A program made the translations under genes and the position numbers. 64,000 nucleotides of DNA, from the IMG/VR virus record IMGVR_UViG_3300031111_000001, positions 32,001 through 96,000 of that record; one strand, 5' to 3'. This DNA comes from a virus. The notes under the pieces were generated by a model. The model was not told the origin of the DNA. It made no database searches and saw nothing but the letters and a program-made list of their open reading frames with translations. Shown piece by piece: positions 4,960 to 47,540 of this stretch (position 1 is the first letter of the stretch; every line of letters starts with the position of its first letter).

Positions 4960-5334
4960 GTGAGAGACATGAAAAATTATTTTCCCGACAATGAGTTGCA
5001 GTGCCCATGCTGCGGAAAACTCAATTTTTCCAAAGATACCAAACTCAAACTGAATCTTGCCCGCGCTCTGGCCGGGATTCCGTTCATTCTCAATTCTGCG
5101 TGCCGCTGCAAAGCCCACAACACCGAGGTGGGCGGCAAAGAAAACTCCTCGCACCTTTGCGAAGGGCAGGAATGCACCGCCGTGGATATCAAAGCAACCA
5201 CTTCCAGACAACGCTATCTCATTCTCGCTGCCCTGATCGGGGCGGGGTTTAATCGCATCGGCATTGCGAAGACATTCGTCCACGCCGACGCAGACCCCAC
5301 CAAGGACGAGAAGGTGATTTGGCTTTACACGTAG
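4960..5334 (+). CDS. Endolysin, peptidase M15A family
   Basis: CPCCG, SACRCKAHNTEVGG..NSSHL..AVDI, RIGIAKTFVHAD motifs. Confidence 0.85.
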   Translation: MRDMKNYFPDNELQCPCCGKLNFSKDTKLKLNLARALAGIPFILNSACRCKAHNTEVGGKENSSHLCEGQECTAVDIKATTSRQRYLILAALIGAGFNRIGIAKTFVHADADPTKDEKVIWLYT

Positions 5335-5343
5335 GAGCGCAAT

Positions 5344-5850
5344 GTGACCGCCAGAAAAATCAACGAGCAACTGCGCCTCCGCAAGAAGCGTCTGGAGCGT
5401 GCCGGGTTGCTTCCTCACAATGAAACTTGGCTGGAGTTCTACAATCGGACCAATGGCACCGAGAAGATCGTCAACCCCGAGTTTACGGCCTGGACCACAA
5501 ACAACCCCGATGGCTGGACGGTTCCGTCTGAGAGTCATGACGAGGTTGATCCCGAGTTTTACATTTCTGAACACAACGGGAAAGCCAAGTTCGTCGCCAC
5601 GGACATCGGAGTTGCCTCGATGCATCAGGCGGACATCTTTGCCGCCGACAAAGAATATTCCGTGATCGTGGACGTGCGGACTATCACCGAGGACGGCGAG
5701 TTCCGCGTCTATTGCGGAGCCCTGCTGACCCAGATCACCGTGCCGGGCTACTACGTTTTCGACGTGAGCGGCCAGACCGGCAACTTTCAAATTCGAACTG
5801 AAGGACCGTGTGAGGTTGTGGTCGCCAAGGCCAGCGTCACCGAGTTCTAG
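5344..5850 (+). CDS. Hypothetical protein, possible carbohydrate-binding beta-sandwich
   Basis: IVNPEF..WT...PDGWT pattern reminiscent of CBM4/9-like domains; AGGAG RBS. Confidence 0.5.
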   Translation: MTARKINEQLRLRKKRLERAGLLPHNETWLEFYNRTNGTEKIVNPEFTAWTTNNPDGWTVPSESHDEVDPEFYISEHNGKAKFVATDIGVASMHQADIFAADKEYSVIVDVRTITEDGEFRVYCGALLTQITVPGYYVFDVSGQTGNFQIRTEGPCEVVVAKASVTEF

Positions 5851-5861
5851 GAGTATATCAA

Positions 5862-6419
5862 ATGTTTGGAATCGCAAGCATTGTGGGGCTTTTGGCCTCC
5901 AAAGGCATCGACATGCTGTCGGATTGTATCGGCAACGCCACCGAGAAGGGCGTCGAGGCGATCACCGACAAAGTCAAGGAAGTGACGGGCATCGACCTGT
6001 CCAACAAGGAAGAGGTTGCCAGTCTCACCCCGGAGCAGGCCCTGGAACTCAAGAAGTTTGAGACGCAGCACGCCGAGTTCTTGCTGGAAATGCGCGTCAA
6101 GGAGGCCAAGCTCTATCTGGAGGACCGGCAAGACGCCCGCGACATGCAGAAAACAGCCCTGAAGCAGGACGACAAGTTCTCCAAACGGTTTGTCCCGGTT
6201 TTGGGCGCGGCTGTGATCCTCGTCTGCCTGGGCTACGCCGTGGCGATCACTTTCATCCCCATCCCCGAGAACAACATCCGCTTCGCCGACACCACCCTTG
6301 GCTTCGCCTTGGGCACCGGCATCGCGACCATTCTGAACTTCTTCTTCGGAACCTCCCACAAGCGGGAGAGCGGCGAGATCGAAGCTGCCGTGGCGTCCAT
6401 CGCCCAGCAGAACAAATAG
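5862..6419 (+). CDS. Holin-like protein
   Basis: EDRQDARDMQ motif followed by two hydrophobic helices and ILNFFFGTS; adjacent to endolysin. Confidence 0.75.
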   Translation: MFGIASIVGLLASKGIDMLSDCIGNATEKGVEAITDKVKEVTGIDLSNKEEVASLTPEQALELKKFETQHAEFLLEMRVKEAKLYLEDRQDARDMQKTALKQDDKFSKRFVPVLGAAVILVCLGYAVAITFIPIPENNIRFADTTLGFALGTGIATILNFFFGTSHKRESGEIEAAVASIAQQNK

Positions 6420-6543: not shown

Positions 6544-7314
6544 ATGAATATTTCGCAATACAATTTCGACAAGGATATCCGGGTTATCAATATTGGCGAT
6601 GTACACCGGGGCGATCATTGCTGCGACACGGAACTGCTGTACAAGCACATCGACCTAATCGCCAAGGACGAGAACACATTTTGGTTGTCCACGGGCGACC
6701 TCCTAAACACCGCGACACGGGGCGGGAGACATGACAGCATCCACGGCAGCGACATTCTGGAGACGGAGTTCGACAACATTTGTGATGAACTGGCTCCGAT
6801 TGCTGACAAATGCTTGGGCGTCGTTTCCTCCAACCACCCTCACCGTGTCAAGAATCTCACCGGCCTCGATCTCGACAAGGTGATGTGCAAGCAGCTTGGG
6901 ATTCCCTACTTGGGGGACTTCGGCACGCTGAACGTCACTTGCGGGCGATGCAGCTATTTCATCGTCATGCACCACGGTTCGCCGGGTGGCGGCGGGCGCA
7001 TGAAGGGGGCCAAGATCAACGCCCTCGACGGCATGAGCGGCATCATCCAGGGGGCCGACATTTATCTGACCGGCCACACACATCAGTACATGACGCATAT
7101 CAACGAACGGTGCTTCGTGGACCGGAAGCGGAACATAGTGTCCTACCAGAAGGTCTACTTCAATACCTGTGCCCACTACCTGTCGTGGGACGACTCCTAC
7201 GCTCAGAGGTTGCGGCTTGGCCCGGCCCCCAAGGGCGCGACGGAGATCAAGCTGGGCGCATCCATGAACGGGCAGAACTCCAACAAGCGCGTGGAAATCA
7301 ACCTGCTCTCCTAA
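6544..7314 (+). CDS. Calcineurin-like metallophosphoesterase
   Basis: GDVH, TGDLL, SNH, HHG and GHTH motifs. Confidence 0.85.
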   Translation: MNISQYNFDKDIRVINIGDVHRGDHCCDTELLYKHIDLIAKDENTFWLSTGDLLNTATRGGRHDSIHGSDILETEFDNICDELAPIADKCLGVVSSNHPHRVKNLTGLDLDKVMCKQLGIPYLGDFGTLNVTCGRCSYFIVMHHGSPGGGGRMKGAKINALDGMSGIIQGADIYLTGHTHQYMTHINERCFVDRKRNIVSYQKVYFNTCAHYLSWDDSYAQRLRLGPAPKGATEIKLGASMNGQNSNKRVEINLLS

Positions 7315-7542
7315 TTTCCTGTCTCACTCCATGGGTGGGGTGGTCCTCTTCGGGGGATCGCCCCTATCCATCCTATCACTTCTGACACGGTTGGGGCCTC
7401 CAATCGTATCATCCTTCGGGTTTCTTCAACCCACCAAAGAAAAAAGTCATTTTTCCTACATAGGGTTTGCAAAGGGTTAAAATCTGAGCTTCAGAAACAA
7501 CAAAACCCCTTGCTTTCACAAGGGGTTACGCTTCCGAGTATT

Positions 7543-7585
7543 TCAGCTTGGGAAGCTGACACTCTACCAACTGAGTTACACCCGC
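7543..7585 (-). other. attP core candidate: 5' half of tRNA-Gly(CCC)
   Basis: Minus strand GCGGGTG-TA-ACTC-AGTTGGTA-GAGT-G-TCAGC-TTCCCAA-GCTGA gives acceptor 5' strand, D arm and anticodon arm; no T arm or 3' acceptor follows; ~195 bp upstream of integrase. Confidence 0.8.
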
Positions 7586-20562: not shown

Positions 20563-20705
20563 AGAGTGGTGGGTTTGCATACGCGCTCTACCAGACTAAG
20601 CTACATCCCCCTGGCCCGAAGGCTTTAGTGTCGGGAGACGACAGGATTTGAACCTGCGACCTCGTCCTTCATATGGATTGCGGTTTTAGTTGCTGAAACC
20701 ACTCT
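20563..20705 (-). ncRNA. Y-RNA-like unit 1 with permuted tRNA core
   Basis: AGAGTGGT-TTCAGCAA...T arm GCAGG-TTCAAAT-CCTGT, acceptor CGTCTCC/GGGGATG, TA, D arm GCTT-AGTCTGGTA-GAGC...ACCACTCT-GT. Confidence 0.8.
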
Positions 20706-20714
20706 AAAAGAAGC

Positions 20715-20773
20715 GGGATGGATAACTTGAATGAATCCATTTCATTTTGTTGTTTGATTGCTGAAACCATCCC
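20715..20773 (-). ncRNA. Short motif unit 2
   Basis: GGGATGG-T-TTCAGCAA...CCATCCC-GC. Confidence 0.7.
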
Positions 20774-20781
20774 AAACAATA

Positions 20782-20961
20782 CGGAGTGGGTTCTGTAATG
20801 CCCCTAGTGTATGGGGCCTCACCAGTGGCATCGGATGTGCCTTACAGTACGGCAAGCGAACTGGTGCCGGATTCCCACCGGATGCTCAGATTGCATTATG
20901 GATTTCAGTTCTCAAGAGACGTTGTTCCCGTGTTTTCTTGTAGAAGACTGAACCCACTCCG
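20782..20961 (-). ncRNA. Y-RNA-like unit 3 with divergent permuted tRNA core
   Basis: 12-bp closing stem CGGAGTGGGTTC/GAACCCACTCCG; T-loop-like CCGG-TGGGAAT-CCGG, 7-bp stem CACCAGT/ACTGGTG, 2-nt linker, hairpin GCCCC-ATACACTA-GGGGC. Confidence 0.65.
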
Positions 20962-20969
20962 AAAGAAAC

Positions 20970-21099
20970 GGAGTACAGTTTTTGCATTACAAAGGTTCTA
21001 CCAGTTGAACTACCTCCCGGTACTGTGGTTGGTCGGGAGGGGTGGACTTGAACCACCAACCGTTTGTTCCTATTGCGTTTGGCTTGCTGCATGTACTCC
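20970..21099 (-). ncRNA. Y-RNA-like unit 4 with permuted tRNA core
   Basis: GGAGTACA-TGCAGCAA...GGTGG-TTCAAGT-CCACC, CCTCCCG-ACCA..CGGGAGG, TA, GTTC-AACTGGTA-GAAC...TGTACTCC-GT. Confidence 0.82.
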
Positions 21100-22017: not shown

Positions 22018-23265
22018 CTACTTGCCCACGGTGGGGTCCAGGGCGAGTTTCTTCGCCATGTCCACCTGAATCATGTTCAGGATGCCCATGATCTCGCTGT
22101 CGGAGCCGGTGCCACCGTTGGCACCACCGGACACGATCACGGTGTCGGGCACCTGACGCTTGGCGATGGCTCCAGCCATGTTCGCATAGACGCGCTCGTA
22201 GGTCGCCAGCTTCTTGTCGAGGGCACCGTCAGCGGCGATCCGCATCTTTGCGGCCTGGGCATCACCCTCGGCACGCAGAATGGTGGCCTTTTTGTACTCT
22301 TCAGCGGCCTGACGATCCAGCTTGGCGACTTCCAGTTCCTGCGCGGCCTTGGTTTCGGCGACTTCCTTGGCCTGTTCGGCCTCGGTCACCTTCTGGGCCT
22401 TGATGACCTTCTGCGCCCACTCGGCCTTGGCCGCATCGGCAGCACCCTGACGCTCGGTGGTCAGCTTATCCTGCTCGGCCTTCTTGGCATTGGCGATGGC
22501 GGTCTGCACGTCCATGGTGATCTTGCGCTGCTGCTCGATCTGGGCCTGGACCTTGTCGTCGTACCGGATGTCGTTCACTGCGAAGTTGTAGAAAGTGATG
22601 CCAAACGCGGCGATAGGCGACTCTTCCTGACGCTTCCAGCCGCCGGGGGACTTGGGATCGGCGATGCGTTCCGTCAGGGTGACGGTCTTCGTCTCGCCGG
22701 TCAGTTCGTCCGTGATCTTCGTGTCACGGGTGGTGGTCGCATAGATGCCGAACTTGGCCTGATCCTCGATGAAGTTTACCAGTTGGCTGCGCTTCTCGGC
22801 GTAGGACTCGCGAGACGACACCAGCGGGCCGGATGCGAAGATCGCCTTGCGCACGACGGTGCGGATCAGGTTGTCCTCGATACCGGGCATGGAGCGGTAC
22901 TTTTCGTGCAGCTTCAGCATGTTGACGGGGTCAACGGGCAGATCGTAGCGCACGGAGCCGCTGACCATGGCCGTACCGGCATCGTTGAAGGTGATCTTCA
23001 GGGACTGGTCGGCGGTGCCGCCCTCGTCGGTCTGGGACGAGAACCAAAGCTGGTTCGACTTGGTGTAGTAGGTCAGGTCACCGAAAAGCTGGGCCTTGGG
23101 GCCAGCGGTAACCCATGGCGTCAGTTCGCCCGTGGTGATGGCCTGCTTGACACAGATGTTTCCGGCAGGGACATTCTCGATCAGGGAGCCGCCCATGGCG
23201 ACGACCACGACCAGAATGATGCCGAACACAGCGGCCATCACACCCTTCTTGGGGGTGAATTTCAT
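22018..23265 (-). CDS. SPFH/band-7 (prohibitin-like) membrane protein
   Basis: N-terminal TM helix, ITFNDAGTA, A/E/K-rich coiled coil, RAEGDAQA. Confidence 0.8.
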   Translation of the reverse strand: MKFTPKKGVMAAVFGIILVVVVAMGGSLIENVPAGNICVKQAITTGELTPWVTAGPKAQLFGDLTYYTKSNQLWFSSQTDEGGTADQSLKITFNDAGTAMVSGSVRYDLPVDPVNMLKLHEKYRSMPGIEDNLIRTVVRKAIFASGPLVSSRESYAEKRSQLVNFIEDQAKFGIYATTTRDTKITDELTGETKTVTLTERIADPKSPGGWKRQEESPIAAFGITFYNFAVNDIRYDDKVQAQIEQQRKITMDVQTAIANAKKAEQDKLTTERQGAADAAKAEWAQKVIKAQKVTEAEQAKEVAETKAAQELEVAKLDRQAAEEYKKATILRAEGDAQAAKMRIAADGALDKKLATYERVYANMAGAIAKRQVPDTVIVSGGANGGTGSDSEIMGILNMIQVDMAKKLALDPTVGK

Positions 23266-31584: not shown

Positions 31585-32589
31585 TTACTCCTGACAGGCA
31601 CCCAGAATGGATGCCTCAAGGTCGGTGTCAGCCGGGGTGGACGCCACGGGAGGCGCGGCGTCAGGGGCCGGGGCGGGAACGCCATAGCCCGGAGGCAGTT
31701 CGCCCAACTGACTGGAGGCGGGAGCCGCCGGGGCGGCAGGAGTCGCATCGTAGGTCGTCGGGGCCTGGGCAGGGGCCGCAGCAGGAGCAGCGGCAGGGGC
31801 AGCAGTGCCGGGAGCGGCGTTCTGTTTGCCGCCCCGGCGGGCCTCGATGTTCCGGTTCATGATCTCGATGGTTTCCAGAGCGGCCATGTGTTGGTCGTAG
31901 AGCTTGCGAATCGGCTCCATGTCGCCACCGGGGCCAGCCATGAACTGGCCCTTGGTCAGGACCGGCTCAAAGTAGGTGATGCCGCCGTTCTTCTTCATGA
32001 CGCTGGAAACGTCGATGGAGAGCATGTAGGGCTGCACCGGCTGGGGGCCGTTGGCGGTCTGGATGGAGAAGAACGAGCGATCACGCAGCATATCGAAGAA
32101 CGGCTTGTAGCCGCTGCGCTTGGCGTAGTGAATGCACTGGACGTGTTCGCCGTCCTCGGTGATAGCGATGCAGAAGATGACCATCTGCGCGTTGCAGCGA
32201 GGGTTGGCGGTTTCGGCACGGTGAGGGCAGGTCTTGCCGCACTTGTAGCCGTAGTTCACGCCGAAGGCACCCTCGGAGAAGTCCTTGAACAGGACGCAGG
32301 AGCAGTTCTTCTTCTGGTCGGACGGGTGGTACAGGCTGTAGCTGTGACGCAGCGCAAGAATGATGATGGACTTCACGGCCTTGCCTTCGTCCACGATGTT
32401 CTGCTGCTGGTCCTTCTTCATGCCCACAATCCACGTTCCGGGGCGGTGGGAGATACCCAACTCGTTCTGGTTGATTCGCAACTGCGGAATGGATGCACGC
32501 TGCTCCACTCCGGTATCGCTCTGCGCGGCCATCTTGTTCAGTTCGGCCACCATGGCAGCGTCAACGGTGGCGGGGACGTTGGTCGTCAT
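31585..32589 (-). CDS. Putative single-stranded DNA-binding protein
   Basis: Beta-rich core, P/A-rich linker, acidic-hydrophobic C-terminus; lies next to recA. Confidence 0.55.
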   Translation of the reverse strand: MTTNVPATVDAAMVAELNKMAAQSDTGVEQRASIPQLRINQNELGISHRPGTWIVGMKKDQQQNIVDEGKAVKSIIILALRHSYSLYHPSDQKKNCSCVLFKDFSEGAFGVNYGYKCGKTCPHRAETANPRCNAQMVIFCIAITEDGEHVQCIHYAKRSGYKPFFDMLRDRSFFSIQTANGPQPVQPYMLSIDVSSVMKKNGGITYFEPVLTKGQFMAGPGGDMEPIRKLYDQHMAALETIEIMNRNIEARRGGKQNAAPGTAAPAAAPAAAPAQAPTTYDATPAAPAAPASSQLGELPPGYGVPAPAPDAAPPVASTPADTDLEASILGACQE

Positions 32590-42735: not shown

Positions 42736-42969
42736 ATGGCCTCTTCCAGTGGCGGCATGGGCCTTTGCAGCGTCCTGCTTGTCGTCTTCATCGTCCTCAA
42801 ACTGGTCGGCGTGATCGCGTGGTCGTGGTGGCTGGTTCTGACCCCTCTGTGGGTTGGCATCGCCCTGTGGATCATCATCATCATTATCGCCCTCCTGTTC
42901 ACCAACAAGATCAAGAAGCACGGCAAGAGCCTCTTCGACGAGTTCGACAAGGCGGTGAGCCGTGGCTGA
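42736..42969 (+). CDS. Small phage membrane protein
   Basis: FIVLKLVGVIAWSWWLVLTPLW motif; AGGAG RBS. Confidence 0.8.
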   Translation: MASSSGGMGLCSVLLVVFIVLKLVGVIAWSWWLVLTPLWVGIALWIIIIIIALLFTNKIKKHGKSLFDEFDKAVSRG

Positions 42970-44065
42970 ACTGATCGTGGAGGTCGTCGCCATCGACGAC
43001 ATCAAGGAGCATCCGAACGCTGACCGCCTGGAACTGGCCGAGGTCAAGGGCTGGCAATGCGTCGTCGGCAAGGGTCAGTTCAAGCCCGGCGACTACGCCG
43101 TCTACCTGCCTATCGACTCGATCCTGCCGGATGATTTGGAGCAGAGGCTGTTTCCGCCCGACGCCAAGGTGAAGCTGAAGAAGTCCCGCATCCGCACGGC
43201 GAAAATCCGTGGCGCGATCTCACAGGGCATGCTGGTCGATCTGGAAGTGTGCGGCCTGGACCCGGCCCAGTGGAAGCCCGGCATGTCCGTCATGGAGAAG
43301 CTGGGCGTCACGAAGTACGAGCCGCCGACGAAGGACGCGCCGGGCTACGTGAAGGCCATCGAAGGCAACCGGAAGGGCTTCCGCAACCCGAACCCCTTCT
43401 TCGCCAAGTACACGGACATGCAGCACCTCCAGAACCGGCCCAGAGCCATCGCCCCGGCAGAGGACGTGATGATCACCGAGAAGATTCACGGCACGTCCTT
43501 CCGCTGCGGCTGGGTGGAGGGCTACCCGGTTACCCTCTGGCAGAAGATCAAGGACTTCTTCGGAATCCTGGGTCACCAGTTCGTGGTCGGCTCCCGCAAC
43601 TGCGAGATCACGGCCCGGAGCAAGACCTTCTACGGCGACGATGTCTACTCCAAGATCGCCAAGCGGTACATGCTCAAGGAACTGCTGGGTATGGGCGTCG
43701 TGATCTACGGCGAAATCTACGGTGACGGCATCCAGAAGGGCTACTGCTACGGCATGCTGGGGGACATCGACCTCGTCGTCTACGAGGTCAAGGTCCGCGA
43801 CAAGTGGATGAACCCCGACGAGGCACGCGAGTTCTGCGAACTGTACGGCCTCCCGTTCGTCCCGGTCCTGTACCGTGGCCCGCTGGGCGAAACCGACATC
43901 AAGGAGCATATGGGTGGCCCGTCCGTGCTGAATCCGGTCCAGAAGGTTCGCGAGGGCTGCGTGGTTCGCTCCATCACCAACGACAAATGCTACGCGGGGC
44001 GCACGGTCTTCAAGTGCATCAACCCCGAGTACCTGCTGTCCAAGAACAACACTGACTGGCACTAA
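42962..44065 (+). CDS. ATP-dependent RNA ligase (Rnl2/DRB0094-like) with N-terminal OB domain
   Basis: HPNADRLELA, TEKIHGT (KxHG), VGSRN, YGEIYG.GIQ, REGCVV, FKCIN..YL. Confidence 0.88.
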   Translation: MAELIVEVVAIDDIKEHPNADRLELAEVKGWQCVVGKGQFKPGDYAVYLPIDSILPDDLEQRLFPPDAKVKLKKSRIRTAKIRGAISQGMLVDLEVCGLDPAQWKPGMSVMEKLGVTKYEPPTKDAPGYVKAIEGNRKGFRNPNPFFAKYTDMQHLQNRPRAIAPAEDVMITEKIHGTSFRCGWVEGYPVTLWQKIKDFFGILGHQFVVGSRNCEITARSKTFYGDDVYSKIAKRYMLKELLGMGVVIYGEIYGDGIQKGYCYGMLGDIDLVVYEVKVRDKWMNPDEAREFCELYGLPFVPVLYRGPLGETDIKEHMGGPSVLNPVQKVREGCVVRSITNDKCYAGRTVFKCINPEYLLSKNNTDWH

Positions 44066-44078
44066 GCCGAGGAATATC

Positions 44079-44372
44079 ATGAAGATCACCCCGAGCAGCA
44101 AGAGTGACCTGTGTCGCAAGGAACTGAAACATCTGGAGCCTTTGGCGACCTTCGTCAGGGAGTACCACGATCTGGACGCCATCCTGAAGGGCACCTACGG
44201 GAAGCGGTTCTCCGTCTATATGGTCCTGCCGCCGTCCACCTACACGGCGGCGTCCGTCAAGTTCGGCAGCGTCATGTGCATCAACCTGCGCACCGGCAAG
44301 CTGGCGAACATCGGCGATCAGACCGCCGTCAACCCCGTGGTTTGCGAGTTGCTCTTCAACAAGGTGTTCTAG
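44079..44372 (+). CDS. Hypothetical protein
   Basis: GAGG RBS, operon position. Confidence 0.65.
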   Translation: MKITPSSKSDLCRKELKHLEPLATFVREYHDLDAILKGTYGKRFSVYMVLPPSTYTAASVKFGSVMCINLRTGKLANIGDQTAVNPVVCELLFNKVF

Positions 44373-44502
44373 TGGTCATCTTCCCATGGGCGCACATGCT
44401 TCTGAAACGCTGCATGTGCGCCCATACTTACCAGCGGCGGTACGACAGACAAAACCCAGAATACATTTACGAACAATGCACGAAATGTGGGAGAAAACGA
44501 TA

Positions 44503-45684
44503 ATGGACCCGAGGCTCAAGCTCACCATCCCCGCCCATGAGATCGAGAGTGAGGCATGGGATCAGATTAAGGCGATCCTTGCCCTGCCGTGCCTGAACAC
44601 CATGGCCGTCATGCCTGATGCCCATTCCGGTTATGATTGCCCCATCGGCGGGGTGGTCCTGCTGCACGACTATGTTTCCCCCGGCTTTGTGGGATTCGAT
44701 CAGGGCTGCGGCATGACCCACGTCAACACGCACCGTCAGGTCGAGGAAATCTGCCCCGAGGGCATGCGCCAGTGCATCTTTGACATGCTGGTGAGCACGA
44801 TCCCCACCGGATTCGCCATGCATGGCACGAAGAACCTCTACGCCCGCTTCGGCCCGAAGCCGTTCAAAACCGCCGGGAAGGGTGGCCTGTGGGTGCAGCG
44901 CATCCATGAGAAAGAGGCCAAGCAGTTCGGCACGCTGGGCGGCGGGAACCACTTCCTTGAGGTCGGCGTCAACGACTTCGGCGAGGTCGGCGTGACCATC
45001 CACAGCGGCTCCAGAAAGCCCGGCTGGCTGGTCGGCAAGCACTACATGGACCTCGCCAAGGCCGAAGGGGAGCAGTACGGCAAGCTCCACCTGTTCCCCA
45101 TCAAGTCCGAGCAGGGGCAGGCGTTCCTGCATGACATGGCGTGGTCCCTGAACTACGCCCTCGCGAACCGGAAGGTCATGATGGCGACGGCCCTGCGCGT
45201 GCTGGGTTTCAGCCCCGCCGAGGTGGCTGAGTTCATCGAGGGCGGCGACATGATCAACGAGAACCACAACCATGCCGAGTACTACGTTTGGAAGTACCCC
45301 GAGGAACCGGGTGGGCGCATGGTGGCTCACCAGATGGTCCTGCACCGCAAGGGTGCGACTCCCGCCGAACTGAACCAGTACGGCGTGATCCCTGCCAACC
45401 AGCGGGACGGCGTCTGGATCACCCGTGGCCTGGGTAACAAGGATTTCCTTGAGTCGGCCTCGCACGGTGCTGGGCGCACCATGTCTCGCACCGCCGCGAA
45501 GAAGACCCTGGACCCGGAAGAGTTCAGGCAACAGATGCTGGGCATCGTTGCCCGCACCGACCTGGGCGTCCTTGACGAGGCCCCCGGCGCGTACAAGGAC
45601 ATTCGCGACGTTCTGAATGCACAGGATGGCATTCTGGTGGACGTGGTGGACCACTTCAAACCTCTGATCGTTTTGAAAGGATAG
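44503..45684 (+). CDS. rtcB: RtcB RNA 3'-phosphate/5'-OH ligase
   Basis: MPDAH.G..CPIG, VGFDQGCG, GTLGGGNHFLE, HSGSR, HNHA, HRKGAT, SHGAGR, DEAPGAYK; start re-assigned to ATG 44503. Confidence 0.95.
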   Translation: MDPRLKLTIPAHEIESEAWDQIKAILALPCLNTMAVMPDAHSGYDCPIGGVVLLHDYVSPGFVGFDQGCGMTHVNTHRQVEEICPEGMRQCIFDMLVSTIPTGFAMHGTKNLYARFGPKPFKTAGKGGLWVQRIHEKEAKQFGTLGGGNHFLEVGVNDFGEVGVTIHSGSRKPGWLVGKHYMDLAKAEGEQYGKLHLFPIKSEQGQAFLHDMAWSLNYALANRKVMMATALRVLGFSPAEVAEFIEGGDMINENHNHAEYYVWKYPEEPGGRMVAHQMVLHRKGATPAELNQYGVIPANQRDGVWITRGLGNKDFLESASHGAGRTMSRTAAKKTLDPEEFRQQMLGIVARTDLGVLDEAPGAYKDIRDVLNAQDGILVDVVDHFKPLIVLKG

Positions 45685-45687
45685 GCC

Positions 45688-45909
45688 ATGGAAATCGAAC
45701 TGAACTGGAACAAAATTCCCTTTGGTATCCGGCTGATCATCATCGGCATCATCGCGTTTTTGATCGGCCTGTGGACCCTGATCCCTGTTTGTAGCTGGCT
45801 TGGCGGAACCATCTTCGCGTGGCCCATGTACAGCACTGCTGGAGTGGTGCTGGTCGGTTCTGTGATCACTACCATCGTCGGCGCGGCTCACTTCATGGAT
45901 AATCTCTAG
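45688..45909 (+). CDS. Small membrane protein
   Basis: Two hydrophobic helices. Confidence 0.65.
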   Translation: MEIELNWNKIPFGIRLIIIGIIAFLIGLWTLIPVCSWLGGTIFAWPMYSTAGVVLVGSVITTIVGAAHFMDNL

Positions 45910-45918
45910 GAGTCCAAT

Positions 45919-46098
45919 ATGAAAATCAACAAGCTCTTTGCCAGCGGTCTGGGCTGCATGTTTGGCGGCATCTGGACGTTCGGCTTTGTCACCCACATCA
46001 CTGGCTCCGGTTCCCTGATGATCGCGTCCCTTGCCACTGCCGCCGTATTGGTGATTATGGGTGTCAAGTTGGTGCAGAAATCAAACATTTTCAAGTAG
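45919..46098 (+). CDS. Small membrane protein (59 aa; not in ORF track)
   Basis: AGGAG RBS; MKINKLFASGLGCMFGGIWTFGFV... Confidence 0.6.
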   Translation: MKINKLFASGLGCMFGGIWTFGFVTHITGSGSLMIASLATAAVLVIMGVKLVQKSNIFK

Positions 46099-46105
46099 AT
46101 TTCGC

Positions 46106-46142
46106 TTGACATTTGTGAAGGAAAATACTATTACCTTCGCAA
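46106..46142 (+). promoter_or_regulatory. sigma70-like promoter plus CCTTCGCAA box
   Basis: TTGACA-N17-TATTAC. Confidence 0.6.
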
Positions 46143-46163
46143 CGCAATCAAAACGGAGATCAC

Positions 46164-47540
46164 ATGAATCTGAGCAACCAAAGACACGTCGCCGGGCACC
46201 TGATAGCGATTCTGAAAGCCGCCGGTCATGACGCCTACATTGTTGGCGGGGCCGTCAGGGACAAGCTCCAGGGCAAGCTCCCCGAGGACGTGGATGTCGC
46301 CACCAGCGCAACACCGGAACAGGTCCAATATGCCTTGGGACAGTTTTTTATCGATACCAAGGTGGTGGGAGAATCCTTCGGGGTGGTTTTGGCTTCCGGC
46401 ATCGAGATCGCCACGTTCCGTAGGGATATCCACAACGGCATCGGCGACAAGAATTGCACCGTGGAGTACGCCAAAACCATCGAAGAAGACCTTTCCCGGC
46501 GCGACTTCACGATCAACGCCATGGCCCTGGACCCGACGAGAAATGAGATCATCGATCCCTTCTGTGGATGGGACGACCTGAACCGCAAGACTCTGCGCTT
46601 TGTCGGTGAGCCGAGCGATAGGATTCTGGAAGACCCCAACAGGATGATCCGCGCTGCTCGTATGATGGCAAAGCTGGGGATGAAGTCTGGCATTTGCCCG
46701 GCAACCCTGAAGGCTATCGTGGAGCATCGTGATTTGGTCCGCACGCACGTTGCCCCGGAGCGCATCCGGTTGGAGATCATGAAGGCTATGAAGCTGGAGC
46801 GGCCCAGCTTGTTCTGGTGGTGGTTACGGGCCTTCGGGATTCTGGAGATTATCCTGCCCGAACTGGACGACCTCTGGGACTGGCCCGGCGGCAAGCATCA
46901 CAAAGAGACTGTCTGGGAACACTCCATGCTGGTGGGAGACGCCATTAGCCCGAAGTTTCCGTTGGTGCGTCTCGCCGGATACCTGCACGACATCGGGAAG
47001 GCTCCCTGTTGGTGCCCCGTGGATGGAAATTTCCTTGGGCATCAGGTGGCCGGAAGCAAGATGGCCGAGGACCGGCTGCTGGAACTGAAGTTCTCCCTGC
47101 GCGAGACGGAGCGCGTCGTCACCCTGATCAGGATGCACATGCGGTCCATCTTCCAGTCTGGCCCCAAGGCCATCCGGCGGCTGCTGGTGGACCTCCAGAA
47201 CGGTCACGTCAGCTACTGCGAGTTCGTCCGTCTGGTCATCGCTGATCACAACGGGAACCTGGGCCAAACGCCGTACAGCTTCAGGGAGATCAAGAAAATC
47301 ATCTTGGCCCTGGAAGCGGAGCAGATCAACTTCTTCGCCGCGAACCGGCCCAGCGACCTGAAGATCAACGGCAACGACGTGATGAAGACCCTGGACCTCA
47401 GGCCCGGCCCGCAGGTTGGCATGGTTCTGCGGAAGCTGTTCGGCTACGTGGACGAAGACCCAGAGCGCAACGAGCGTGGGCACTTGATGTCTGTGTTGAG
47501 CGAGTGGAACTATCCCTACGACTATCTGGAGGCTGCGTAA
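46164..47540 (+). CDS. cca: CCA-adding tRNA nucleotidyltransferase with HD domain
   Basis: VGGAVRD..DVDVAT, EIATFR, DLSRRDFTINAMA, EDPNRMIRAAR, ERIRLE, LHDIGK. Confidence 0.92.
   Translation: MNLSNQRHVAGHLIAILKAAGHDAYIVGGAVRDKLQGKLPEDVDVATSATPEQVQYALGQFFIDTKVVGESFGVVLASGIEIATFRRDIHNGIGDKNCTVEYAKTIEEDLSRRDFTINAMALDPTRNEIIDPFCGWDDLNRKTLRFVGEPSDRILEDPNRMIRAARMMAKLGMKSGICPATLKAIVEHRDLVRTHVAPERIRLEIMKAMKLERPSLFWWWLRAFGILEIILPELDDLWDWPGGKHHKETVWEHSMLVGDAISPKFPLVRLAGYLHDIGKAPCWCPVDGNFLGHQVAGSKMAEDRLLELKFSLRETERVVTLIRMHMRSIFQSGPKAIRRLLVDLQNGHVSYCEFVRLVIADHNGNLGQTPYSFREIKKIILALEAEQINFFAANRPSDLKINGNDVMKTLDLRPGPQVGMVLRKLFGYVDEDPERNERGHLMSVLSEWNYPYDYLEAA

Follow-up and report, generated by a model that had tools for sequence, protein, structure and literature searches.

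Circularly permuted tRNA bodies without anticodon loops in a phage RNA array, and their probable partnership with a predicted Ro60-fold protein of the DUF2828 family

Here we describe an array of small RNA units encoded in 64,000 nucleotides of viral DNA (IMG/VR record IMGVR_UViG_3300031111_000001, positions 32,001 to 96,000; hereafter "the window", in whose numbering all coordinates are given), which belongs to a viral record that is complete at 114.6 kb, bears direct terminal repeats and comes from an uncultured phage. Two of these units, termed 1 and 4, are real circularly permuted tRNA bodies that lack an anticodon loop, and they constitute a conserved structured feature that is a variant of the Ro60/Y RNA kind. 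We consider them probable Y-RNA-like noncoding RNA genes that partner a Ro60-shaped DUF2828 protein, the position of the array directly upstream of the gene for that protein making it their most likely partner. Ro60 and Y RNAs form an RNA-surveillance particle known from bacteria to humans, in which the tRNA mimicry practised by bacterial Y RNAs is still unexplained. Newly reported here are a re-permutation test of the two units, a covariance model built with the window left out, covariation of the Levitt pair, a dichotomy of acceptor ends between tetraloops and NCCA with a linker, and a negative result for a further unit, unit 3. The principal features are:

20705-20563, minus strand: unit 1, a Y-like RNA composed of a handle and a permuted tRNA body
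21099-20970, minus strand: unit 4, a Y-like RNA composed of a handle and a permuted tRNA body
20500-19109, minus strand: gene for the Ro60-like protein, 463 amino acids, Pfam DUF2828 and DUF7788, PHROG 850

Both units carry the parts of a tRNA in the order anticodon-stem 3' strand, variable region, T arm, acceptor 3' strand, linker, acceptor 5' strand, U8-A9, D arm and anticodon-stem 5' strand, and the four helices are visible in their minimum-free-energy folds. Nucleotides invariant in tRNA are found at the corresponding places (the UUCRANU T loop, G53-C61, U8-A9, A14, G18G19 and A21). The ends are joined by the handle, a covarying closing stem beside which the motif (U)UNCAGCAA lies in an A-rich internal loop. 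In unit 1 the handle strands AGAGUGG and CCACUCU (20705-20699 and 20569-20563) accompany the motif UUUCAGCAA at 20698-20690 and enclose a 6-bp anticodon stem, CAUAUG/CGUAUG (20675-20670 and 20583-20578), a 12-nt variable region, a T arm at 20657-20641 with the loop UUCAAAU, an 8-bp acceptor stem (20640-20633 with 20611-20604) that includes a G-1:C73-type pair, a 21-nt acceptor linker containing a UUCG hairpin, and a D arm at 20601-20585 preceded by UA. Unit 4 has the handle GGAGUACA / UGUACUCC with the motif AUGCAGCAA, a 5-bp anticodon stem (ACAAA/UUUGU) and a perfect 7-bp acceptor stem (C1-G72), followed by an encoded A73-CCA (ACCA, 21033-21030) and a 10-nt linker. The Levitt pair is G15:C48 in unit 1 and A15:U48 in unit 4.

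A sequence-only reading of this region, made by a model, had proposed three permuted tRNA cores in which the motif stem replaced the anticodon arm, and had anticipated that standard tRNA finders would miss them. ARAGORN is indeed silent on the native sequences of units 1 and 4; once the two halves of each were swapped and joined by any 7-nt loop, it called tRNAs of 81 and 76 nt, respectively, the latter including the ACCA of unit 4. The permuted order and the absence of an anticodon loop are borne out for these two units. Replacement of the anticodon arm holds for the loop alone, since both units retain the stem, at 6 and 5 bp, respectively.

To place the units in a family we gathered homologues of the protein from 80 viral contigs (41-49% identity) and from named phages, and searched 669 kb for the handle, specified as a stem, 1-4 nt, C(A/C)GCAA and a partner strand. 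Handle units numbered 140 on the strand of the protein gene versus 8 on the opposite strand; 81 preceded the gene by no more than 1 kb and 31 came shortly after it, and 60 of the 80 loci had units near the gene. An alignment of nineteen units in which a D arm comes after a T arm served to construct a covariance model, R1. The consensus structure that RNAalifold drew from these 19 comprised the closing stem, the T arm, the acceptor hairpin and the D arm, and 17 of 22 pairs showed compensatory changes. R1 scored unit 1 at 68.6 bits and unit 4 at 98.1 bits, and every one of its 79 matches fell on the protein's strand. Among 68 distinct sequences, 95.8% of cells were paired versus 37-47% in slid controls, and 21 of the 22 pairs showed double changes. 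A second model, R2, was built from 22 units of other phages only, the window sequences being left out to avoid circularity. Searched against both strands of the window, it placed unit 4 first (89.5 bits, E 3.5e-14) and unit 1 second (59 bits, E 1.3e-8), and its other matches were confined to three further members of the array described below (the leader copy, unit A and unit B).

The tRNA likeness of the family extends to tertiary contacts. At the Levitt position 15:48, G15 is accompanied by C48 in 10 of 11 units, and A15 by U48 in 19 of 27 (Fisher p 1.4e-6, uncorrected for relatedness), a covariation that argues for a folded D/T elbow and contradicts the supposition that the two loops do not interact. 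U8-A9 is present in 33 of 42 units, A14 in 39 and the D-loop GG in 38. The closing stem, whose conservation in homologous loci had been the other point in doubt, carries compensatory changes there, as does the acceptor hairpin.

Units of this kind recur beside homologous genes in well-separated phages. In mycobacteriophage AvadaKedavra three lie directly downstream of a gene annotated "Ro-like RNA binding protein", the middle one being a permuted tRNA body (69 bits). In Salmonella phage Mushroom (Felixounavirus; locus L082 of our set) handle units at 5216-5282, 5380-5442, 5838-5905 and 5925-6049 occupy, downstream of the Ro60-like gene, the spaces that separate annotated tRNA genes and are themselves unannotated; that at 5925-6049 is a permuted tRNA body (62.6 bits). 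About 250 phage records conserve this locus, the region being either unannotated in them or labelled "hypothetical protein". The annotation table of L082 puts the tRNAs on the minus strand and ARAGORN puts them on the plus strand, the strand column apparently having been left unflipped in a reversed locus. At least five units, including a tRNA-like one (53.4 bits), are found in Bacillus phage MrDarsey. Listeria phage LMTA-148 and Campylobacter phage F361 have three and two units, respectively, directly upstream of the gene and with no tRNA cargo. Across the family the cargo borne by the handle may be a permuted tRNA body, a non-permuted tRNA body, a T arm alone or a plain hairpin. Examples with tRNA cargo in normal order (L009 3597-3689 and L060 2005-2102) present a D arm, an anticodon arm with a 7-nt loop and a T arm, with the handle in the place of the acceptor stem, a permutation opposite to that of units 1 and 4.

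Acceptor ends of the permuted relatives take two forms, as seen in a comparison of loci L021, L024, L028, L034 and L029 versus L049, L060, L008 and L026. In one, an 8-bp stem is capped by a GNRA or UUCG tetraloop; in the other, as in unit 4, a 7-nt 3' strand is followed directly by NCCA and a linker of 10-50 nt. Among 17 relatives with long loops, NCCA stands at exactly that place in 5 by a strict count and in about 9-11 by eye. This split bears directly on whether RNase P cuts these RNAs.

The partner protein had to be recognized by its predicted structure. Its open reading frame (ORF), 20500-19109, matches Pfam DUF7788 (1.3e-45) and DUF2828 (2.1e-23), the only Pfam families found at E <= 0.01, and PHROG 850, "RNA-binding protein"; Pfam TROVE gave no match, and a phmmer search of the PDB retrieved no Ro60. 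A profile of 32 homologues reached the Ro60 of Thermus phage phiLo with an E-value of 4.5e-4 over 43 residues, covering only the MIDAS (metal-ion-dependent adhesion site) stretch. In the homologues the MIDAS-type sequence DxSGS is invariant (D266, S268, G269 and S270). The AlphaFold (AF2) model (predicted local distance difference test 85, predicted template-modelling score 0.84) comprises a helical-repeat N-terminal ring and a C-terminal von Willebrand factor A (vWA) domain. When this model was compared with the PDB by Foldseek, the top 12 matches listed (ranks 1-13) were all Ro60, aligned at full length with E-values of 8e-10 to 8e-5, and included the proteins of phage phiLo (9kop), Deinococcus (Rsr; 2nvo), Xenopus (1yvp) and human; template-modelling scores were 0.55-0.64 for ten of the twelve chains and 0.36 for 2nvo and 9nen. 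As modelled, the product is a Ro60-fold protein of a family left separate from TROVE by sequence methods. Homologues occur in 710 phage records and throughout the genus Felixounavirus, where identity is 38-39% over 96% of the length. We found no paper linking DUF2828 to Y RNAs, and no Rfam family for the handle.

Units 1 and 4 lie 63-600 nt upstream of this gene and on the same strand, within an array whose whole extent is held in the 920 bases preceding the ORF. Every element of the array is on the minus strand, as is the gene, and the 5' to 3' order is A, B, tRNA-His, a tRNA-shaped RNA, unit 4, unit 3, unit 2, unit 1 and a leader copy of the handle. The remaining members and the adjoining gene are as follows:

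21414-21359, minus strand: unit A, a handle-only short RNA, AGAGUGC / GCACUCU with AUUCAGCAA and 3' CUGU
21350-21287, minus strand: unit B, a handle-only short RNA, AGGAUGG / CCAUCCU with AUUCAGCAA, then a U run; 24 bits
21263-21189, minus strand: canonical tRNA-His (GUG) within the array; 55 bits
21183-21110, minus strand: tRNA-shaped RNA between tRNA-His and unit 4, with four paired stems and an 8-nt anticodon loop, CGGCCUUA
20960-20783, minus strand: unit 3, a 178-nt RNA with an 11-bp closing stem, GGAGUGGGUUC / GAACCCACUCC
20773-20715, minus strand: unit 2, a handle-only short RNA, GGGAUGG / CCAUCCC with UUUCAGCAA; 33.2 bits with R1, for the handle only
20545-20493, minus strand: leader handle copy, the seventh handle, in which UGGUUCAU with UUCAGCAA pairs with AUGAACCA, which spans the start codon of the Ro60-like gene
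19112-18489, minus strand: gene for a small vWA-domain protein, directly downstream of the Ro60-like gene

The ends of every array unit are joined by a closing stem, and CAGCAA follows its 5' strand after 1-3 nt in all units except unit 3. Five exact copies of TTCAGCAA occur within 900 bases, besides AUGCAGCAA in unit 4. The conjunction of C(A/C)GCAA 1-4 nt after a closing stem with a neighbouring DUF2828 gene on the same strand is found for units 1, 2, 4, A and B and for the leader copy. Unit A scores 29.1 bits, and the leader copy is matched by both models (30.3 bits by R1, 29.4 by R2). ARAGORN, and Rfam at gathering thresholds, report nothing but tRNA-His in the array; sigma-70 promoters and terminators are not enriched there, and no sigma-70-type promoter lies inside it. 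The tRNA-shaped RNA at 21183-21110 has the T loop UUCAAUU and a D loop with GG; it receives no ARAGORN call, and its best Rfam match is tRNA-Sec at only 19.8 bits.

Unit 3 had been taken for a third tRNA mimic, and this is not supported. The geometry described for it is present: a T-loop-like hairpin (20881-20867, with the 7-nt loop UGGGAAU), an abutting 7-bp stem (20866-20860 with 20826-20820), a 2-nt linker and a second hairpin (20817-20800). Its likeness to tRNA, however, is unproven. The unit is without CAGCAA, G18G19 and UUCRA, its motif is degenerate (UUCAGUCU, with CAGUCU in place of C(A/C)GCAA), it scores only 4.8 bits with R1, and nhmmer and short-word blastn found no relatives of it in 83 related loci. 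Folding of a slightly shortened stretch was only modestly better than that of shuffles (z -2.1). The three cores originally proposed accordingly reduce to the two upheld by re-permutation and by R2.

Position, strand, copy number, architecture and the predicted protein fold together point to a system of the Ro60/Y RNA type, and the closest known counterpart of the two RNAs is YrlA (RF02553), the Y RNA of bacterial and mycobacteriophage Ro60/Rsr proteins (Chen et al. 2014, PMC4201824). There the variable region, T arm, closed acceptor stem-loop and D arm follow one another and the two ends of the RNA form the stem that binds protein; TruB and DusA modify YrlA, and M. smegmatis YrlA is cut by RNase P and CCA-tailed (PMC4201824). 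Units 1 and 4 share this order of elements, the conserved tRNA nucleotides with a covarying 15:48 Levitt pair, placement on the same strand as, and next to, the gene for a protein of (here predicted) Ro60 fold, with several Y RNAs per locus, and, in some members, signs of RNase P/CCA processing. The window's genes for RtcB, an RNA ligase and a CCA enzyme parallel the bacterial rsr-yrlA-rtcBA arrangement. The YrlA-type topology named in the sequence-only reading stands, with YrlA the best non-tRNA match in Rfam for both units and a predicted Ro60-fold gene adjacent, while membership of the YrlA family proper is not supported. The scores of 29.0 bits for unit 1 and 28.9 bits for unit 4 (E ~9e-4) compare with a gathering threshold of 69; homologous units in relatives score 26.7-40.1 bits, and no other Rfam family explains units 1 and 4. 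Of the motif GNCGAAN0-1G there is no trace as CGAA in the 5' part of unit 1, which has UUUCAGCAA there, or of unit 4, which has AUGCAGCAA; the motif is instead (U)UNC(A/C)GCAA, in an internal loop by a covarying stem of 6-11 bp whose ends, AG..CU(G), are conserved. The partner likewise belongs to Pfam DUF2828/DUF7788 rather than TROVE, and the cargo, unlike that of YrlA, is interchangeable. A YrlA gene would be expected within 4 kb of a Ro60 orthologue on its own strand; the neighbour at that distance here is a Ro60 fold by prediction, outside TROVE.

Other systems resemble the array in part. The Ro60 of Thermus phage phiLo binds two upstream Y-like RNAs (Yrl1 and Yrl2) and the host polynucleotide phosphorylase (PNPase) (PMC12135203; PDB 9KOP, 9L5Y). 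It is the best structural match to the window protein, a phage Ro60 fold of about 460 amino acids, its two RNAs are encoded directly upstream, and their 5'-3' stem flanks an internal bulge with the contact motif; unlike the window protein it has a TROVE domain (17% identity), and its RNAs carry CGAA, with no tRNA-like domain reported. In the dictyostelid Class I RNAs (RF01414; PMC7919456), as here, the two ends meet in a short covarying stem, the 5' G is conserved and the interior varies, and a single-stranded motif ending in CAGCAA follows the 5' strand, with CUGU at the 3' end. Unit A aligns with RF01414 from end to end, but its 25.2 bits (E 0.053, searching 1.5 kb) fall short of the 41.5-bit cut-off; units 1 and 4 have no match, and none appears at E <= 1 in eight related loci. 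Class I RNAs are, unlike units 1 and 4, without tRNA bodies, and their known partner is an RNA-recognition-motif protein (PMC7919456). The resemblance is a lead rather than a sign of membership. Permuted tRNA genes of the Cyanidioschyzon type and two-piece transfer-messenger RNA (tmRNA) also place the 3' half upstream of the 5' half and join the acceptor strands by a linker that may be excised; units 1 and 4 differ from both in having no anticodon loop, bulge-helix-bulge junction or coding tag, and their products cannot decode.

Homologues of the window protein occur throughout Felixounavirus, to which phage Bas63 belongs, and like Bas63 gp130 are found upstream of a tRNA block. Bas63 gp130 has been described as a Ro60-like protein, encoded upstream of the tRNA block, that acts against the ppl defence; some of the tRNAs annotated there might, by the authors' guess, be Y RNAs (bioRxiv 10.1101/2024.10.10.617714). 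In Mushroom, by contrast with that guess, the Y-like units are located in the gaps between annotated tRNAs and are not the tRNAs themselves.

From these comparisons we propose how such a particle might work. The handle, with its closing stem and single-stranded (U)UNCAGCAA after the 5' strand, would be the binding site of the DUF2828 protein, by analogy the counterpart of the Ro60-binding stem and internal loop, and the tRNA body would be the counterpart of the YrlA effector module. The cargo would amount to a tRNA body with its anticodon loop removed and its acceptor end closed, predicted to fold into the tRNA L-shape. As in Ro60/YrlA, this module may tether to the ring protein enzymes by which the elbow or acceptor end of a tRNA is recognised, candidates being RNase P, the CCA-adding enzyme, modification enzymes, exonucleases of the PNPase type and the RtcB, RNA ligase and CCA enzyme of the phage. 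Unit 4 would probably be cut in its acceptor loop by RNase P and trimmed to a two-piece RNA. During infection such a particle could deal with RNA that is damaged or misfolded, probably tRNA, and would do so most likely as counter-defence. The leader copy of the handle, with the start codon in its 3' strand, suggests feedback on translation of the Ro60-like protein.

Several points weigh against the proposed partnership. The YrlA score is far below its cut-off and the GNCGAA/CGAA motif that contacts Ro60 is absent, so that binding of the handle by the protein is an analogy. Expression, binding and processing of the units are predictions from the sequence of an uncultured phage. The covariation counts derive partly from a model-fitted alignment (the 68 sequences) and from related sequences. 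The RNA repair genes stand 22 kb from the array and outside its operon. Finally, handle RNAs without tRNA-like cargo accompany the gene in many relatives, among them the Listeria and Campylobacter phage loci, from which it follows that the tRNA module is optional and not essential to the particle.

The alternative that survives best, though it is unlikely, is that the tRNA-shaped modules are decoys that absorb tRNA-attacking defence nucleases of the host or tRNA-binding toxins, the ring merely stabilising them or standing idle. The faithful tRNA core with its tertiary-pair covariation, the tRNA repair genes of the same phage and the action of the homologous Bas63 protein against a defence system (bioRxiv 10.1101/2024.10.10.617714) would all suit such a role. 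A pure decoy is nevertheless disfavoured because the anticodon loop, the target of classical anticodon nucleases, is absent and because the conserved handle and the gene linkage are left unexplained; the acceptor end of unit 1 is moreover closed, and with two copies only, very high expression would be needed to rival the cellular tRNA pool. An adaptor role for the tRNA mimics fits the context better than a decoy role.

It is improbable, too, that the units act only in cis as parts of a polycistronic transcript, serving the DUF2828 mRNA and adjacent tRNAs as punctuation for processing or stability or as autoregulatory operators. The missing internal sigma-70-type promoter accords with this, as do the seventh handle copy, located in the mRNA leader and paired with the start codon, and the short units that abut the ribosome binding site in many relatives, ending about 20 nt before the start codon (e.g. 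L017, L019, L023 and L012). In other phages, however, units follow the gene or are set between tRNA genes, punctuation requires no elaborate cargo with tRNA tertiary signatures, and feedback by the same protein would explain the leader copy equally well.

Still harder to credit is a two-piece, chargeable tRNA-like RNA in which cleaved and trimmed unit 4 exposes ACCA and is aminoacylated, or serves as a substrate or primer, apart from any Ro60-type surveillance. Such a product is brought to mind by the A73-CCA encoded right behind a perfect 7-bp acceptor strand, by NCCA at exactly that place in at least 5 (by eye about 9-11) of the 17 long-loop relatives while short loops are capped by GNRA or UUCG, by the cleavage and CCA-tailing of M. 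smegmatis YrlA (PMC4201824) and by the phage's own CCA-adding enzyme. Synthetases that require an anticodon would find none, the acceptor hairpins are closed in unit 1 and in most relatives, and processing of this sort is compatible with a Y-RNA-like role and not a rival to it.

Scarcely credible, finally, is the view of the units as remnants of decayed tandem tRNAs, the T arm of one beside the D arm of the next, or as true permuted genes that mature into ordinary tRNAs, for although the array lies within a tRNA region and tandem tRNAs do give false matches (L082 6294-6403 and L083 127-181, with the same caveat in PMC4201824), the acceptor strands within each unit form a stem with one another, covariation across distant phages is seen in the closing stem, the acceptor hairpin and the Levitt pair, the junction has no 7-nt anticodon loop or splicing motif, and the leave-out model returned E-values down to 3.5e-14. 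For units 1 and 4 we rejected decayed tandem tRNAs on the pairing and covariation of their own acceptor strands, and true permuted genes on the ends that form the handle and the lack of an anticodon loop. The two false positives just named, genuine tandem tRNAs with no handle, were excluded.

Returning to the reading of units 1 and 4 as Y-RNA-like partners of the DUF2828 protein, we offer a broader formulation tentatively, as a possibility that may well prove wrong. The tRNA-shaped units might be the effector arms of a widespread, undescribed ribonucleoprotein in which the DUF2828 ring, present in about 710 phage records and in phages of Proteobacteria, Actinobacteria, Firmicutes and Campylobacter, holds interchangeable RNAs by one CAGCAA handle, a design shared with the still unexplained Class I RNAs found in social amoebae; through the tRNA mimics, RtcB, RNA ligase, the CCA enzyme, RNase P and PNPase would be brought to the ring to undo host attack on tRNA. 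A ring protein, a handle and a tRNA-shaped arm are now seen in a far larger and sequence-divergent family, one annotated just as "RNA-binding" or hypothetical in hundreds of phage genomes, among them those of much-studied model phages (Felixounavirus, Listeria P100-like phages and mycobacteriophages). The previously unannotated RNA genes identified here account for "gaps" and "pseudo-tRNAs" in phage tRNA clusters, and link handle RNAs to a protein already found to counter bacterial defence.

The genomic surroundings are those of a phage with its own replication and nucleotide metabolism (NrdD, dUTPase, SbcC and RuvC among the window genes). The RNA repair cluster occupies 42962-47540 on the plus strand and contains an RNA ligase with an OB fold (42962-44065), RtcB (44386-45684) and a CCA-adding enzyme with an HD domain (46164-47540). 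In Listeria phage LMTA-148 (L089 6852-8062) 1.3 kb separate the DUF2828 gene from a downstream RtcB gene whose annotation is split in two, a closer linkage of Ro60-like protein to RNA repair than in the window. An SPFH/Band-7 gene (22018-23265, minus strand) is directly upstream of the RNA array, and in mycobacteriophage AvadaKedavra (L084 1007-1903) a band-7-like gene lies about 1 kb upstream of the Ro-like gene; tblastn found no SPFH neighbour in the 80 viral contigs. The small vWA gene adjoins homologues in just 1 of 83 loci, and the vWA and SPFH genes are not generally linked to the homologues. Strict handle matches elsewhere in the window (e.g. 7007-7223) fall inside an ORF and appear chance-like. 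At 7533-7585 on the minus strand is a truncated tRNA-like piece (Rfam tRNA, 30.8 bits), consisting of an acceptor 5' strand, a D arm and an anticodon arm with the loop UUCCCAA, without a T arm, and followed by a strong hairpin and a U run (about 7525-7495).

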